This document shows positions 18,129-41,417 of a DNA stretch of 59,584 nt, piece by piece (positions within the stretch are counted from its first letter, which is position 1; every line of letters starts with the position of its first letter). This DNA is from an uncultured Candidatus Saccharibacteria bacterium (GTDB lineage Bacteria > Patescibacteriota > Minisyncoccia > Phycocordibacterales > PALSA-1337), in the NCBI GenBank assembly GCA_964406895.1, contig CAYOTK010000007.1, positions 1 to 59,584 of the forward strand. Reading direction: 5' to 3'. The notes under the pieces are model-generated. The model did no database searches. It saw only the letters and a list, made by a program, of their open reading frames with translations, and had not been told where the DNA came from. Both the position numbers and the translations under genes were made by a program.

Positions 18129-19373
18129 ATGAAAGACCCTCAAATCAAAAAGCTCATAGAAGCCGAGAAGAAGCGCCAGAAAAAAGTGATCAATCTCATA
18201 GCTTCAGAAAATTACGTATCCAAAGATGTTTTGGAAGCTCTTGGTTCTGAATTGGTAAACAAGTACGCAGAAGGCTATCCAGGTAAACGTTATTACGGGG
18301 GTAATGAAATAATCGATAAAGTAGAAGAGTTGTGCAAAGAGAGAGCGCTCAAGGCTTTCGGTCTAGTAGGTCCCTCGATTCGCTCGCAGAGCGAGCTCAC
18401 TCGGGGCAATTCGCCTCTGGTGAATTGGTCGGTCAATGTGCAACCTCTTTCAGGCTCTCCTGCCAATACAGCGGTTTATCTAGCTCTCGTACCTGTCGGT
18501 GGCAAAATCATGGGCATGTCCCTCGATCATGGAGGTCATCTTACTCATGGTCATAAAGTTTCTATTTCAGGAAAGGTCTGGCAACAGATTCCATTTGGAC
18601 TATCAAAAGAAACAGAGAGAATTGATTATGAGTCATTGAGGCATTTGGCCATGAATGAAAAGCCAGCTATTATCGTCGCTGGTTTTACTGCTTATCCAAG
18701 AATTATTGATTGGAAAAAGTTTAGAGAAATCGCCGACGCTTGTGGAGCATATTTCATGGTAGACATGTCTCACATTGCAGGCCTCGTTGCTGGTGGTGTT
18801 TATCCTTCACCTTTTGAATACGCGGATATTGTTACAACTACTACTCACAAAACATTGAGAGGTCCAAGGGCCGCTCTCATATTTTCGAAAATAGATGAAA
18901 GAGAAATATACAAGAAGATAGACAAAGCCGTTTTCCCAGGAATTCAAGGCGGTCCTCACGAGAATCAAATCGCTGCCGTCGCCGTTGCTCTCAAGGAGGC
19001 AAGTTCTCCTGCTTTCAAAAAATACGCCAAGCAAGTCGTGAAGAATGCACATGTTTTGGCAGAAGATTTGAAGTCTTTTGGTTGGAAGATCATTTCTGGT
19101 GGTACTGACTCACACCTTATTCTCGTTGATACTTGGAATGGTGGAGTGAAAAATAATAAAGGTGCAGGTGCGGTAGCGGGCAAGAATGCCAGTGACAGAC
19201 TAGAAAAGGCGGGCATAATCGTTAACAAGAATGCAATTCCTTTTGATACACGTCCGCCAGCAGATCCTTCTGGTATTCGTTTGGGTACAGCAGCTGAAAC
19301 GACCAGGGGAAGAAAAGAAAAAGATTTCCACAAAATTGCAAAGACTATTGACAAGATTCTGAAGGGGGAGTAG
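18129..19373 (+). CDS. glyA: Serine hydroxymethyltransferase, carrying a roughly 19-aa in-frame insert
   Basis: ASENYVS, VNVQPLSGSPAN, HGGHLTHG and TTTTHKTLRGPR (PLP lysine). There is extra sequence VGPSIRSQSELTRGNSPLV between AFGL and NWSVNVQP. Confidence 0.93.
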   Translation: MKDPQIKKLIEAEKKRQKKVINLIASENYVSKDVLEALGSELVNKYAEGYPGKRYYGGNEIIDKVEELCKERALKAFGLVGPSIRSQSELTRGNSPLVNWSVNVQPLSGSPANTAVYLALVPVGGKIMGMSLDHGGHLTHGHKVSISGKVWQQIPFGLSKETERIDYESLRHLAMNEKPAIIVAGFTAYPRIIDWKKFREIADACGAYFMVDMSHIAGLVAGGVYPSPFEYADIVTTTTHKTLRGPRAALIFSKIDEREIYKKIDKAVFPGIQGGPHENQIAAVAVALKEASSPAFKKYAKQVVKNAHVLAEDLKSFGWKIISGGTDSHLILVDTWNGGVKNNKGAGAVAGKNASDRLEKAGIIVNKNAIPFDTRPPADPSGIRLGTAAETTRGRKEKDFHKIAKTIDKILKGE

Positions 19374-19380
19374 TATCTTG

Positions 19381-19656
19381 TCTGAAACCCCTATGGCTGT
19401 ACGACATTCGGCCCAGACCGAGTAAGTCGTGAAGTCAACGGAGTTCCGTTGAAATATAGGGGCTCACGCCCCTAGAAGGAGGTGGGACGTCGTCCATCCG
19501 GTAAAGAATGGTCCAACTGATACCTGGGCCCAATCGGTCACGGCCGTCCACCTTCTAACCCTGCGCCGCAGGGCGACACCTTATGCTCCGAGTCCACGCC
19601 GAAAGGCAATTTCTAGGACAAAGAGGAATTGGTGTCGCCCGCGGCCTTTTCTTTTG
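19381..19656 (+). ncRNA. Unclassified G+C-rich structured RNA or leader ending in a terminator-like stem and U-tract
   Basis: Helices 19401-05/19426-30 (inner 19408-11/19418-21), 19436-41/19446-51, 19457-63/19468-74, 19475-89/19445-55 shifted to 19545-55, and 19517-21/19533-37 (which has a U.G pair only on the plus strand). GAAA tetraloop hairpin at 19598-19607. A 15-bp stem 19565-80/19631-45 is followed by UUUUCUUUU. Confidence 0.5.
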
Positions 19657-19688
19657 TCTGATTTCAGCTGAACTGATAAAATTATTCA

Positions 19689-20048
19689 ATGACTAAAGGC
19701 AACGCATTTTTTCTTTCAGTGTTTATAACTATTATTGTTGCGCGATTATCTGTTGTGCTGTTTCCTGAGTCAGATATTTATATTTTTGGTTTGAACTTTC
19801 ATCATTTCTGGACGGGCTTAATCATCATCTTACTTAGTTTGTTCTTGATAAAAACCAAATCCTCTTTGGGAATAATAATTTTCGGTATAGGTGCGGGTCT
19901 CGTGTCAGATCAATTAGTTTTTATGCTTTTGGGAGGTGGCGGTGATAAGGAATACTGGTCTTTCATTCCTACTTCATCAGTTTTAATAATTATCTGTATT
20001 GTTTTTCGTGTCAGGAAGTATTTAAGTTTTTTTGTTGAAACTAAGTAA
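19689..20048 (+). CDS. Hypothetical small membrane protein (about 4 TM)
   Basis: 119 aa, very hydrophobic, with a GGGGD loop. No CrcB or SMR signature motifs. Confidence 0.6.
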   Translation: MTKGNAFFLSVFITIIVARLSVVLFPESDIYIFGLNFHHFWTGLIIILLSLFLIKTKSSLGIIIFGIGAGLVSDQLVFMLLGGGGDKEYWSFIPTSSVLIIICIVFRVRKYLSFFVETK

Positions 20049-20139
20049 TGAGGCTCTGATCGGCTTGTATTTTGGCGAATTAATGTTAATGTTTTTTGTA
20101 GAACAGTAACTCTAAACGTCGGTAAAAGTAACTCGTCAT

Positions 20140-20544
20140 ATGTCAACAATGAATCCAAGAGAAGCTTTGCTCAGAATCTTTGAGAAGCTGGTTGGTCGAG
20201 AGTGCGGATCCTTTGTGCCTGGGGAAATCTGGGTTCTCAGAGGACAATACGGTCTTCAAGGGACCCCTACTGTTTTGCGGGTTTATATCGTCAACTTGCG
20301 AGGTTATGATGGGGTTGGTGGGACAACTTGCCTTGCTTTGTATTATGATCACACGAATGGTGGTGGTGAAGTTATGAACCTTAAGACCGGCGACGATCCG
20401 AGGGTTGGTAAAGTTGAGTTTTGTACGAGTGGTGTGATGCTTGCGCCGGCCGATCCATCGTTGCTGGTTTGTGGACAAGTTCTCGTCGAATTCAACCGTT
20501 TGGTTTCCGGTCCTGACGGAGTGGCGCAGATTTTTACTCCATAG
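20140..20544 (+). CDS. Hypothetical protein, G+C-rich compositional outlier
   Basis: 134-aa ORF with protein-like composition. The antisense 173-aa ORF is R/K/T-rich junk. A strong plus-strand terminator lies downstream. Confidence 0.55.
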   Translation: MSTMNPREALLRIFEKLVGRECGSFVPGEIWVLRGQYGLQGTPTVLRVYIVNLRGYDGVGGTTCLALYYDHTNGGGEVMNLKTGDDPRVGKVEFCTSGVMLAPADPSLLVCGQVLVEFNRLVSGPDGVAQIFTP

Positions 20545-20596
20545 GACTGACCACTTTCTCGGTTTTCGTTGTGGTCGAGCCATCCGAGTTTTCGTC

Positions 20597-20631
20597 AACC
20601 GCCCCCTCCCAAAGAGGGGGTTGGCTTTTTC
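20597..20631 (+). terminator. Rho-independent terminator
   Basis: CCCCCTC-CCAAA-GAGGGGG followed by TTGGCTTTTT. Confidence 0.7.
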
Positions 20632-20684
20632 TATAAAACACATGACTAAGGCAAAATTTTTCAAAAATGCTAGAATGATTCATT

Positions 20685-23600
20685 ATGGACGAAAAGAAAA
20701 CAAACAAATCAACTCATTCTGAAAGAGAAGAGAAAATACTATCTTTTTGGAGAGAAAATCAGATTTTCGAAAAGACTTTGGAGAAAAACAAAAATAAAGG
20801 CAAAAACTTCGTCTTTTTCGAAGGACCACCAACTGCAAATGGCAAGCCAGGAATTCATCATCTAGAGGCGCGTGCTTTCAAGGACGCAATTCCTAGGTAC
20901 AAAACTATGTGTGGTTATCACGTGCGCAGGAAAGGGGGCTGGGATACTCACGGTTTGCCGGTTGAACTTCAGGTCGAGAAAGAACTAGGCTTGAAATCAA
21001 AAAAAGAAATAGAGAAATACGGCATCGCTCCATTCAATGAGAAATGCAAAGAAAGTGTTTGGAAATATGTCCATGAATGGGAAGAATTCACGGATAGGAT
21101 AGGTTATTGGGTAGATCTCAAAGATCCATACATAACATATAAACCGAAATACATAGAATCAGTATGGAATATTATAAAAGAAGTAGATAAGCAGAAACTT
21201 ATATACAAGGATTACAAAGTTGTACCTTGGTGTCCTCGATGTGGAACAGCTCTTTCGTCGCATGAATTGGCTCAAGGCTATGAAGATGTTAAAGATCTTT
21301 CTGTATACGTAAAATTCAAGGTCAAAAATCCTGAGAAGATTGGCTTGAAAGGCGATGTCTATCTTCTTGCGTGGACGACGACTCCGTGGACGTTGCCAGG
21401 GAATGTGGGGCTGGCTGTGGGAGAAAAGATTGAATATGTTGAGATAAGGTTAAAGCGCAAAACTCAAAGCTCAAAAGTGGACTCAGACAATGAAGAGACT
21501 ATTATTTTGGCGAAGGAAAGGTTGGAGAGTTTGACGAGTAAGGGAGAATTTGAAGAGGTTACAGGGAAGAGTTGGAAAGGCAAAGACCTCATCGGCTTGG
21601 AATATGAACCATTGTACCCATTCATTGTTGATAATATTTCAGGTGCAGAAAAAGAAAAATTGCAAAATGCTTATAAGGTTTATCCAGCAGATTTTGTTAC
21701 AACTACCGATGGTACAGGCATAGTTCATACAGCAGTAATGTATGGACAAGATGATTTCGAATTGGGAACAAAAGTCGGCTTACCGAAATATCATTTGGTC
21801 AATGAAGACGGCACTTTCAAGCTAGAAACAGGTTATTTGGCAGGCGCTTTCGTAAAGGATCCTGCAACTGATGTAGCTATAATCAAAGATTTGGCCGGTC
21901 GAGGTTCATTGTTTGCAAAAGAAAAATACGAGCACAGTTATCCTCATTGCTGGAGATGTCACACTTCGCTCATATATTATGCCCGTGACTCATGGTATAT
22001 AGCCATGTCCAAATTGCGTGACAAGCTCGTCGAAGAAAACAAGGATATTCATTGGGAACCTGAACACATCAAAGAAGGCAGATTCGGTGAATGGCTTTCT
22101 CAGATCAAAGATTGGGCAATTTCTCGCGAAAGATATTGGGGTACGCCTTTGCCAATATGGGTTTGTAATAATGAGAAGTGTGGTAAAAGGAAAGTAGTAG
22201 GCTCAAAAGTAGAATTGGAAAAGAAGTCTTCCAATACTTATTTTATCATGCGTCATGGTCAGTCAGAGAATAATGTTAAAGAAATATTAAACTCAGATGT
22301 TAAAAATGTATTTTCTCTAACAGAGAAGGGCCGGAATGATGTGCAGAAAACAGCCGAGATAATAAAAGAAAAATTTGATCTTATTATTTCTTCACCACTA
22401 CAAAGAACAAAAGAAACTGCGGAAATAGTAGCTAAAATAAATGGTTATAAGGCTTCCGATATTATTCTGGACAATAGACTTTTGGAAGTTGGTTTTGGTG
22501 AGTTAGAAGGCGCAAGCGAAGATAGTTATGCGAAGTTATTCTCAAACCGAAAAGATTTCTTCAATTTCGTGTCGAAAGGGGTTGAGTCTCGTCAGACCAT
22601 AAAAAAGCGTTCTTTGGATTTGTTGCAAGAATTAGAATCGAAATATAAGGGCAAAAAGATTTTGCTTGTTGGTCATAGCAGTCCCTTGTGGTTAATGACG
22701 GCTGTCGCAAACGGTCTCGATCTCGATGAAACTTTAACGATTAAGCCAAGAGGCGAAATCTTCATGAAAAACGCAGAACTCAGGCCTCTCGAATACAAAG
22801 TTATTCCAAGGAATGAGTATGGTGAGCTTGATCTTCATCGTCCTTTTATTGATGAGGTTTATTTTGACTGTTCTTGCGGGGGCAAAATGCAAAGAGTCAA
22901 AGAAGTCATGGACGTTTGGTTTGATTCTGGTTCAATGCCTTTTGCTCAGGATCATTATCCTTTCGAAAATAAAGAACTCATTGATAGTGTTTCTTATCCG
23001 GCTGATTATATTTCTGAAGCTATAGATCAGACTCGTGGTTGGTTCTATACTTTGCATGCAATCGGAGTTTTGATGGGCAAGGGCAAAGCATATAGAAATG
23101 TCATATGCCTCGGTCATATTCTCGACGAAAAAGGCAAGAAAATGTCCAAGTCTATCGGCAATGTCGTCAATCCTCAAGAAATGATGGATAAATATTGCGC
23201 AGATGCGCTGCGTTTTTGGATGTATTCTGTCAATCAACCAGGGGATTCCAAGAATTTTGACGAGAAAACTGTGGATGAGGTTGTAAAGAAAGTTTTCAAT
23301 CTCATAACCAATGTTTTGTCATTCTATAAACTTTACGATTCTGGCAAAAATTCCAAAGACGCGCGCCCGAAATCTCAACATGTACTCGATCGTTGGATAA
23401 TGATGAAGACTGATGAGCTTATTATCAAAGTAACGAAAGGTCTTGATAATTATGTTTTCCTCGAGCCAACTCGTTCAATCCGAGAATTCATTGCGGATTT
23501 GTCACAATGGTATTTGCGCAGGTCGCGTGACAGATTCAAGACAGAAGGGGAAGACAAAGAGCAAGTTTTGATAACAATGAAATACGTTCTTACAACGCTA

Positions 23601-24230
23601 GCCAAAGTTATGGCTCCGTTCACGCCTTTCTTGTCTGAATATGTTTATCGAGAAATCAGAGGCAAACTCGAGAGTGTTCATTTGGAAGATTGGCCTGTCG
23701 CCGAAACGGTTGATGCACAATTGTTGCAAGACATGGAAACAGTCAGAATCCTCGCTTCGAAAGGACTTGAATCCAGAATGAAAGCAGGAATAAATGTAAG
23801 ACAGCCACTTATGTCTTTGAAGCTAAAGAATTCCGTCGTTGTTGATTCGGATAAACTCAGCAATGAATTCTTGGAAATTATAAAAGATGAAGTGAATGTA
23901 AAAGAAGTTTTGTTTGATGATACTATAAATGGTGACGTTGAATTGGACACGAATATTACGCCTGAGCTAAAAGAGGAGGGTATGGTCCGAGAAGTTATTC
24001 GTGCAATTCAGGATCTACGCAAAGAAGCGGGGCTGACGGTCAATGATCGTGTGGTATTGATCGTGGGTACAGATGAAGAAGGCAATAATTTTGTTGAAAA
24101 GAATAAGGCAGAAATAATGAGAGTTACTTTGCTCAAAGAAATTAAGTTTGAAAATCAATCTCAAGATATTTCAAATAATAATATTGAAATTGGGGATTTG
24201 AAGATGAAATTGGGATTCAATAAAGAATAA
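20685..24230 (+). CDS. ileS: Isoleucine--tRNA ligase with an embedded histidine-phosphatase (PGM-like) domain
   Basis: PPTANGKPGIHHLEARA (HIGH), WCPRCGTAL, KMSKSIGN and DVWFDSGSMPF. An extra roughly 190 aa with FIMRHGQSENN, SSPLQRTKETAEI and LLVGHSSP lies between the zinc-knuckle region and DLHRPFID. Confidence 0.93.
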   Translation: MDEKKTNKSTHSEREEKILSFWRENQIFEKTLEKNKNKGKNFVFFEGPPTANGKPGIHHLEARAFKDAIPRYKTMCGYHVRRKGGWDTHGLPVELQVEKELGLKSKKEIEKYGIAPFNEKCKESVWKYVHEWEEFTDRIGYWVDLKDPYITYKPKYIESVWNIIKEVDKQKLIYKDYKVVPWCPRCGTALSSHELAQGYEDVKDLSVYVKFKVKNPEKIGLKGDVYLLAWTTTPWTLPGNVGLAVGEKIEYVEIRLKRKTQSSKVDSDNEETIILAKERLESLTSKGEFEEVTGKSWKGKDLIGLEYEPLYPFIVDNISGAEKEKLQNAYKVYPADFVTTTDGTGIVHTAVMYGQDDFELGTKVGLPKYHLVNEDGTFKLETGYLAGAFVKDPATDVAIIKDLAGRGSLFAKEKYEHSYPHCWRCHTSLIYYARDSWYIAMSKLRDKLVEENKDIHWEPEHIKEGRFGEWLSQIKDWAISRERYWGTPLPIWVCNNEKCGKRKVVGSKVELEKKSSNTYFIMRHGQSENNVKEILNSDVKNVFSLTEKGRNDVQKTAEIIKEKFDLIISSPLQRTKETAEIVAKINGYKASDIILDNRLLEVGFGELEGASEDSYAKLFSNRKDFFNFVSKGVESRQTIKKRSLDLLQELESKYKGKKILLVGHSSPLWLMTAVANGLDLDETLTIKPRGEIFMKNAELRPLEYKVIPRNEYGELDLHRPFIDEVYFDCSCGGKMQRVKEVMDVWFDSGSMPFAQDHYPFENKELIDSVSYPADYISEAIDQTRGWFYTLHAIGVLMGKGKAYRNVICLGHILDEKGKKMSKSIGNVVNPQEMMDKYCADALRFWMYSVNQPGDSKNFDEKTVDEVVKKVFNLITNVLSFYKLYDSGKNSKDARPKSQHVLDRWIMMKTDELIIKVTKGLDNYVFLEPTRSIREFIADLSQWYLRRSRDRFKTEGEDKEQVLITMKYVLTTLAKVMAPFTPFLSEYVYREIRGKLESVHLEDWPVAETVDAQLLQDMETVRILASKGLESRMKAGINVRQPLMSLKLKNSVVVDSDKLSNEFLEIIKDEVNVKEVLFDDTINGDVELDTNITPELKEEGMVREVIRAIQDLRKEAGLTVNDRVVLIVGTDEEGNNFVEKNKAEIMRVTLLKEIKFENQSQDISNNNIEIGDLKMKLGFNKE

Positions 24231-41081: not shown

Positions 41082-41417
41082 ATGCAGAACGCAGATCAAC
41101 AGTTCCTCGAGTACGTTGTTAAGGCATTAGTAGATGCACCTGATCAGGTCAAAGTAGTTCGCACTGTCGATGAGATGGGAGTGCTACTTACTCTAGAAGT
41201 CGGTGCAGCAGATATGGGTAAGATCATTGGCCGACAGGGAAATACAGCAAAGGCCATAAGAACTTTGCTCCGTGTCGTTGGAATGAAGAATAACTCAAGA
41301 GTAAATCTCAAAATCAATGAACCAATAGGTGGTTTGAAATCACAAGAAAGAGCAAGTCAAACTGGATCGGCTTCAAAAACAGTTGATGAGGCCATGGCAG
41401 ATCTCAAGTTAGAATAA
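41082..41417 (+). CDS. KH-domain RNA-binding protein (YlqC/UPF0109 family) with C-terminal extension
   Basis: LVDAPDQVKV......LLTLEV...DMGKIIGRQGNTAKAIRTLL. It sits upstream of trmD as in the rpsP-KH-rimM-trmD operon. Confidence 0.85.
   Translation: MQNADQQFLEYVVKALVDAPDQVKVVRTVDEMGVLLTLEVGAADMGKIIGRQGNTAKAIRTLLRVVGMKNNSRVNLKINEPIGGLKSQERASQTGSASKTVDEAMADLKLE

Follow-up and report, generated by a model that had tools for sequence, protein, structure and literature searches.

The G+C-rich block that follows glyA in the genome studied here is probably a stand-alone gene for a small non-coding RNA, occupying a slot behind glyA whose contents are exchangeable, a reading that comes from sequence comparison. 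The RNA most likely represents an undescribed family with two known members and is most likely not a riboswitch. The window, that is, the whole stretch of DNA that was analysed, is contig C7 (59,584 nucleotides) of a 750-kb CPR/Patescibacteria genome with 39% GC that is 97% complete (G000). In the proposed mechanism, RNA polymerase would start at about position 19383, from a promoter inside the last codons of glyA, and would terminate in the U-tract (19647-19655). This terminator probably ends the glyA message too, whereas the membrane-protein gene that follows would be transcribed separately from its own promoter. Lineages would swap the RNA body by homologous recombination within the flanking glyA and downstream sequences, so that the promoter and the U-tract stay where they are.

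Structure of the block behind glyA

The block, which is present as a single copy within the genome, lies between glyA and an open reading frame for a hydrophobic protein of 119 residues (Table 1) and has a GC content of 56-61%, compared with 39% for the contig. On the plus strand, positions 19370-19690 have a predicted folding energy of −125.4 kcal/mol (z = −5.63), and none of 100 dinucleotide-shuffled sequences was equally stable. The minus strand of the block also folds strongly (z = −4.68), and therefore energy alone cannot select the strand; the selection of the plus strand comes from the homologue in genome G102 that is described below. The initial annotation had proposed a highly structured G+C-rich RNA on the plus strand with several helices, including a long-range helix, and this description is borne out by the folding statistics and by the recovery in the fold of helices P1 to P4 and the final stem. 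The 15-bp G+C-rich stem that it placed ahead of UUUUCUUUU, 33 nt before the start of the membrane protein, was also recovered, with one bulged A in the stem. The hairpin with a GAAA loop that it listed does exist, but its stem is just 3 bp long, it sits within the terminator loop, and it is missing from the G102 homologue.

Table 1. Features of the glyA locus in window coordinates
Feature	Position	Strand	Evidence or remark
glyA (serine hydroxymethyltransferase)	18129..19373	+	Pfam SHMT, E=4e-156
Sigma-70-type promoter, TTGACA-17-TAGTAT	19348..19376	+	promoter scan, 10/12 consensus positions
Predicted non-coding RNA, ~273 nt	19383..19655	+	fold, G102 homologue; ends predicted
P1, irregular three-part hairpin, three segments	19394..19437	+	best conserved domain; 7 varying pairs, all paired
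P1 hexaloop, CC(C/A)AGA	19412-19417	+	conserved, unpaired
P1 UAA bulge	19423-19425	+	conserved, unpaired
P2 hairpin	19436-19451	+	stem identical in G102, loop differs
P3 hairpin	19458-19473	+	stem identical in G102, loop differs
P4 long-range helix, 19475-19489/19545-19555, two inner stems	19475..19555	+	shorter and loosely alignable in G102
Single-stranded linker AACCCU	19557..19562	+	conserved in both members; candidate contact site
Intrinsic-terminator-like stem, 19565-19580/19631-19645, and U-tract	19565..19655	+	15 bp, one bulged A, pair probabilities >=0.99
U-tract UUUUCUUUU	19647-19655	+	33 nt before ATG at 19689
GAAA hairpin, 3 bp	19598-19607	+	inside terminator loop; absent from homologue
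Stretch swapped for a different 197-200-nt sequence in close relatives	19385..19645	+	contig joints, runs X2, X3, X8; loose end in X6
Extended -10 promoter TGATAAAAT of membrane gene, 6 nt before ATG	19674..19682	+	genome-wide spacing peak
119-aa hydrophobic protein, unnamed family	19689..20048	+	no Pfam family

P1b, P1c, P2, P3, and the terminator have pair probabilities of 0.78-1.0; those of P1a, which is weakened by its overlap with P2, are 0.12-0.88. P2 is joined to P3 by an A-rich linker (P2-P3 span, 19436..19473). The terminator loop, of which the GAAA hairpin forms part, is structured and about 50 nt long, and for this reason a simple terminator scan restricted to loops of 3-8 nt did not list the terminator. 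The conserved unpaired bases are few and are confined to the P1 hexaloop, the UAA bulge, a GAAAU segment, and the AACCCU linker, whose unpaired probability is 0.96-1.0 here and 0.64-0.98 in G102. As a separate observation, a perfect extended Shine-Dalgarno-like run at window positions 19476-19484 is paired within the 5′ strand of P4; it has no start codon at the right distance and is partly retained in G102.

The homologue in G102 and searches for further members

BLASTN over 150 genomes of the family returned only short terminator-tail or chance matches (one of these, L006, lies in a 16S rRNA leader) and missed a true homologue. For this reason, the DNA behind glyA was inspected directly at 90 loci, comprising 81 from the genus (the window's own included, drawn from 90 genus genomes with a glyA match), one from a further member of the family, and eight from members of the order. 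One homologue was found, in genome G102, at the same site directly behind glyA. Its local alignment score is 64, as opposed to a maximum of 31 among shuffles (z = 14), and a model derived only from the window sequence, searched over 80 of the 90 loci, gives it 46.6 bits. The P1-P3 core is identical at 60 of 76 positions (79%) between the two genomes, compared with 70% identity in the last 470 nt of glyA.

Ten of the 40 base pairs that were scored vary between the two sequences, and the plus strand keeps all ten paired, whereas the minus strand keeps four, which upholds the strand assignment. The chance of all ten remaining paired is between 5e-5 and 5e-3, depending on the substitution model, but it should be noted that the set consists of two sequences and that the helices were picked from the folds of these same sequences; in a shuffle control for covariation, 130 of 500 shuffles reached the observed value, two rows giving no power. 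Two of the varying pairs in P1 are changed on both sides, as are three pairs of the terminator stem, one of which depends on the alignment register. Comparison of the two sequences is thus weakly indicative of a structure that has been kept through sequence change. The glyA tree places G102 together with G136 and G129 (support 100/99), two genomes that hold another RNA family, and G000 stands apart from G102; this is a single-gene tree with weakly supported deep branches.

Searches for additional members and for known families gave consistent results. The Rfam 15 covariance models found no match over 19381-19656, either at the gathering level or at E<=10, which agrees with the statement in the initial annotation, made together with a proposal to search Rfam, that the block does not match the consensus features of RNase P, tmRNA, SRP, cobalamin, TPP, fluoride, guanidine-I, or T-box RNAs; the G102 copy gave only an 11.4-bit chance match to a human lncRNA model. 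A covariance model (R2) searched over the 150 family genomes had two real matches; a weak third match, at 21 bits in G066, was rejected because many of its pairs are broken and it falls within a coding frame. No member was found in 149 genomes of the order, and the G102 allele, used as the query over 93 genus genomes, found only itself. An exact-motif scan of GTDB genomes yielded one match, the G102 stretch itself; those of JGI metagenomes and viral contigs had none, nor did the phages and plasmids searched contain a match to the RNA.

The genome has its tmRNA on contig C6 (99 bits), its RNase P RNA on C1 (87.6 bits), and a weak 6S match on C6 (24 bits), and neither an SRP RNA nor an Ffh M domain (SRP_SPB) was found in this 97% complete assembly. 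The possibility that the block is the tmRNA, RNase P RNA, 6S RNA, or SRP RNA of the genome was rejected since none of these models matches the locus; by eye, P3 suggested the topology of an HDV-like ribozyme, which was also rejected, because its strands come in the wrong order and G102 does not retain the loop. No perfect match of at least 16 nt occurs elsewhere in the genome, on the plus or the minus strand, and there is therefore no obvious antisense target or role as the template of a diversity-generating retroelement (DGR). A search on small, non-coding, or structured RNAs and riboswitches in CPR bacteria or Patescibacteria found no relevant paper in the part of the literature that it covered; the motif may have been described outside Rfam.

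The promoter-terminator frame and its contents in relatives

The promoter of the RNA is written into the end of glyA, where it spans the last eight codons and the stop codon, with the -35 box in Ile-Asp-Lys codons and the -10 box overlapping the stop codon; taken with the modal 6-nt -10 spacing in this genome, its position predicts an RNA start at about 19383. Promoter and terminator motifs thus flank the RNA on both sides, as in stand-alone sRNA genes. The TTGACA arrangement is present at 10 of the 90 glyA loci, and a plus-strand terminator lies 174-276 nt downstream at all 10, as compared with 11 of the 80 others (Fisher 6e-8, a value that is inflated by kinship among the loci and that concerns a promoter class chosen only after inspection of the data). 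Ile-Asp-Lys ends spell TTGACA in 14 of 26 cases, compared with 14% expected from codon use. In G054, sister to G129 on the glyA tree, the -35 box is kept, the -10 box is damaged, and there is no unit.

Pairwise comparison of the units at eight of the ten promoter loci identified two families, G000/G102 and G129/G136 (z about 14 for each), the other 26 of the 28 pairs not being alignable, and many relatives have no unit at all at the glyA 3′ site. The G129/G136 family is a second structured RNA in the same plus-strand slot (L054:634-854 (-) and L107:598-856 (-)), with an alignment z of 13.8, folding z values of −5.6 and −3.4, and no match in Rfam. A distant kinship with the block was considered, the order of the hairpins being similar, but was not borne out, the pairwise z values being at most 0.6 and the four-way alignment poor. 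Three other loci (L033, L071, and L079) have, in the plus-strand slot directly behind glyA, a ribosome-binding-like site and open reading frames of 16-21 codons, which share, by eye, P-[SA]-F-[ET]-G near the C terminus and form a candidate micropeptide family.

Different contents at the site are seen in close relatives, in which glyA has about 92% identity (in run X8, 38 of 479 nt differ) and the membrane gene is the same, but the stretch from 19379 or 19385 to 19645 is replaced by 197-200 other letters, with the promoter and the U-tract kept. In X2, X3, and X8 the joints lie after 19378 or 19384 and the sequences rejoin at 19646, whereas X6 has a loose end; these joints coincide with the predicted RNA start and the end of the terminator stem. 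The window allele and the alternative allele co-occur in X2 and X3, which belong to one study, and X6 and X8 come from two further studies. The alternative allele is known from 30 nt of sequence and so may be a homologue of less than 80% identity; even as a homologue, it would be more divergent than flanks of 92% identity predict. Its first 30 nt are absent from 164 family genomes and from the loci that were collected.

Natural transformation is a plausible route for such exchange. ComEC is present in the genome, and a published study states that natural competence has been shown for Saccharibacteria and that com genes are conserved across the CPR (PMC10633639).

X2 and X3 are RNA runs, in which the contigs of the window type are continuous from glyA through the RNA to the membrane gene. 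Depth over the block is 20 in X2 and 42 in X3, with 15-47 in neighboring stretches, and gives no sign of an abundant discrete RNA; DNA may have been carried over. Such contigs carry no ends, strand, or level, and depth is uninformative on expression.

Several observations concern the wider neighborhood. An intergenic survey found many G+C-rich promoter-to-terminator units in the genome. A second G+C-rich unit occupies window positions 20051-20645 and contains an orphan open reading frame of 134 residues (20140-20544) and a terminator-like hairpin ahead of ileS; it is skipped in some X2 and X3 contigs and so is strain-variable too. The isoleucyl-tRNA synthetase that follows (20685-24230) has an inserted histidine-phosphatase domain at residues 520-686. 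In relatives, the interval between glyA and argS holds a second slot, on the minus strand and divergent from the argS promoter, with promoter-to-terminator units that are mostly unalignable (for example, L032, L037, L041, L042, L059, L063, L065, L070-L072, L075, L080, L083, L086-L088, L090-L092, L095-L098, and L108). An invariant motif, GGUUCCUC in the transcript sense, occurs in this slot at 24 of the 90 loci and is absent from the window's own slot; GGTTCCT has 28 matches, compared with about 2 expected from its frequency in this genome. The motif often lies in a hairpin loop (unpaired 0.58 versus 0.39 overall, 23 loci), the units have no common open reading frame, and the motif looks like a seed against ribosome-binding sites of the GAGGA type. 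This minus-strand family may be more tractable as an sRNA family than the RNA behind glyA. In G000 itself, the best match to the G102 ArgS has just 25% identity and is encoded on another contig (C1, 20905-22461), so the genome has lost the adjacency of glyA and argS that is usual in the genus, and its ArgS may be of a different type.

Alternative readings and possible roles

The ZTP/pfl and THF riboswitch classes lie near folate and purine genes, and the block resembles attenuating riboswitches of this kind in being an aptamer-sized fold followed by a terminator. The initial annotation had preferred such a reading, in which the block is a leader that attenuates transcription of the membrane gene, and had named a stand-alone sRNA as the second option; the second is now the supported one, and the first is largely refuted and very improbable. 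The promoter, fold, and terminator do all lie upstream of the membrane gene, and the 5′ strand of the terminator has alternative partners; here it can form a local hairpin (19559-19573) or, in partial transcripts, pair with 5′ sequence, and in G102 it can pair with an upstream stretch. However, the two members do not have the same alternative pairing, and in the full RNA the probability of the local hairpin is at most 0.002. The block also differs from riboswitches in that it lies downstream of glyA, the gene after it is not constant, the two members share no antiterminator pairing, and Rfam has no match. In G102 the gene after the homologue is argS, which is served by a promoter of its own, and the RNA was found at none of the 29 loci of membrane-protein homologues that were fetched besides its own, the comparison of upstream regions that the initial annotation had proposed. 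The relatives described above retain the membrane gene with a different upstream sequence.

The membrane gene itself has an extended -10 motif, TGATAAAAT, at the modal 6-nt spacing; because of this, it most likely gives rise to a separate, leaderless mRNA. Throughout the genome, the extended -10 motif (TGnTAnnAT) stands 6 nt before ATG at 58 sites, a strong signature of leaderless mRNAs, compared with 18 sites at 7 nt and 0-9 at other spacings; an extended -10 at an ATG was found within 860 nt downstream at 67 of the 90 glyA loci. A search on leaderless promoters in Patescibacteria found no paper in the portion of the literature that it reached. The 119-residue protein, to which the initial annotation assigned four putative transmembrane segments, is strongly hydrophobic in alignment and belongs to a family with 134 representatives at E<=0.001 and is present in 34 of 401 genomes of the class, its own included; it had no loci in metagenomes, and its Atlas neighbors are all hypothetical. 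The protein is most likely a neighbor of the RNA and not its regulated partner.

It is unlikely, although less so than the riboswitch, that the block is a structured glyA 3′ untranslated region and terminator with no separate function, or an RNA cut from the glyA message. The block starts 10 nt past the glyA stop codon and contains the first terminator after glyA, the contigs from the RNA runs are continuous from glyA across it, and many relatives have nothing at the site; however, a terminator needs no P1-P3, yet P1-P3 is better conserved than glyA, and a promoter matching 10 of 12 consensus positions is located exactly at the RNA 5′ end, a promoter of this kind being found at the start of the unit in all 10 such loci. 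A structured mRNA for a very short peptide, encoded by the 10-codon open reading frame at 19393-19425, is quite improbable. Its start and stop codons align in G102, and it retains what likelihood it has because three other slot units (L033, L071, and L079) look, by eye, like genes for short peptides. But of the nine codons that follow the start, four encode a different amino acid in G102, whereas four four-fold sites are unchanged, and wherever a paired position has changed, P1 stays paired; the ATG, at the foot of P1, has no Shine-Dalgarno site and is not leaderless, since the predicted RNA start lies 10 nt away. Longer open reading frames with a start codon are not shared by the two members. 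The slightest likelihood attaches to a selfish, MITE-like insertion, for which the exact 8-bp direct repeats TTGTCTGA at 19378-19385 and 19654-19661 would be the target duplication and which would fit the varying presence of the element among relatives. The element, however, is single copy in the genome and has no match in phages, plasmids, or viral contigs, no TTGTCTGA-like repeat flanks the G102 copy, both known copies occupy the same locus, and the relatives show replacement and not an empty site.

Stand-alone bacterial sRNA genes have their own sigma-70 promoter, a length of 50-400 nt, and an intrinsic terminator. The block resembles them in having a promoter, a structured body, and a terminator and in not depending on the downstream gene. 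The 10-codon open reading frame is kept in both members but does not vary in the manner of a protein gene. The block differs from typical examples in that it has no Rfam family, its promoter forms part of the coding sequence upstream, a search of the genome for Hfq and CsrA found neither, and the body differs between close strains. With 6S, SRP, RNase P RNA, and tmRNA it shares size, GC content, and predicted stand-alone transcription but, as noted, no model.

If the RNA is a stand-alone sRNA, it may bind protein through the P1-P3 domain, as a decoy or scaffold, a role that we suggest tentatively. On the same premise, a base-pairing regulator that acts through the AACCCU linker, possibly with a chaperone of the KhpA/B type, is a more doubtful candidate; a KH-domain protein of this type, a candidate RNA chaperone, is encoded at window positions 41097-41315. 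The preference for protein binding, which is held with low confidence, arises because helices and short loops contain nearly all of the conserved bases.

The locus can also be compared with replacement flexible genomic islands, which are described as large gene clusters for exposed structures (Lopez-Perez et al. 2014, PMC4033161). The two are alike in having a fixed site with contents that differ between strains and in homologous recombination through the flanks as the likely route, but the unit here is one transcript of 200-270 nt that is apparently non-coding. A further-reaching view of these CPR bacteria is speculative and improbable: they would keep "allelic RNA slots" at housekeeping loci, each a promoter-terminator frame that is fixed while its structured, non-coding RNA is swapped between lineages under diversifying selection, and the RNAs, as decoys or exported effectors, would serve in conflicts with hosts or phages. 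If true, these slots would be the RNA-level counterpart of replacement genomic islands.

The locus offers a concrete RNA with comparative support in CPR bacteria. A streamlined 750-kb genome keeps an RNA that is better conserved in a distant relative than a core enzyme gene, while close strains hold other content at the same site. The order of fold, terminator, and then gene is no signature of a riboswitch in these genomes, where many genes seem to have a promoter to themselves and a leaderless mRNA. Should the slot model be right, gene-centered annotation would be missing a strain-variable layer of RNA function.
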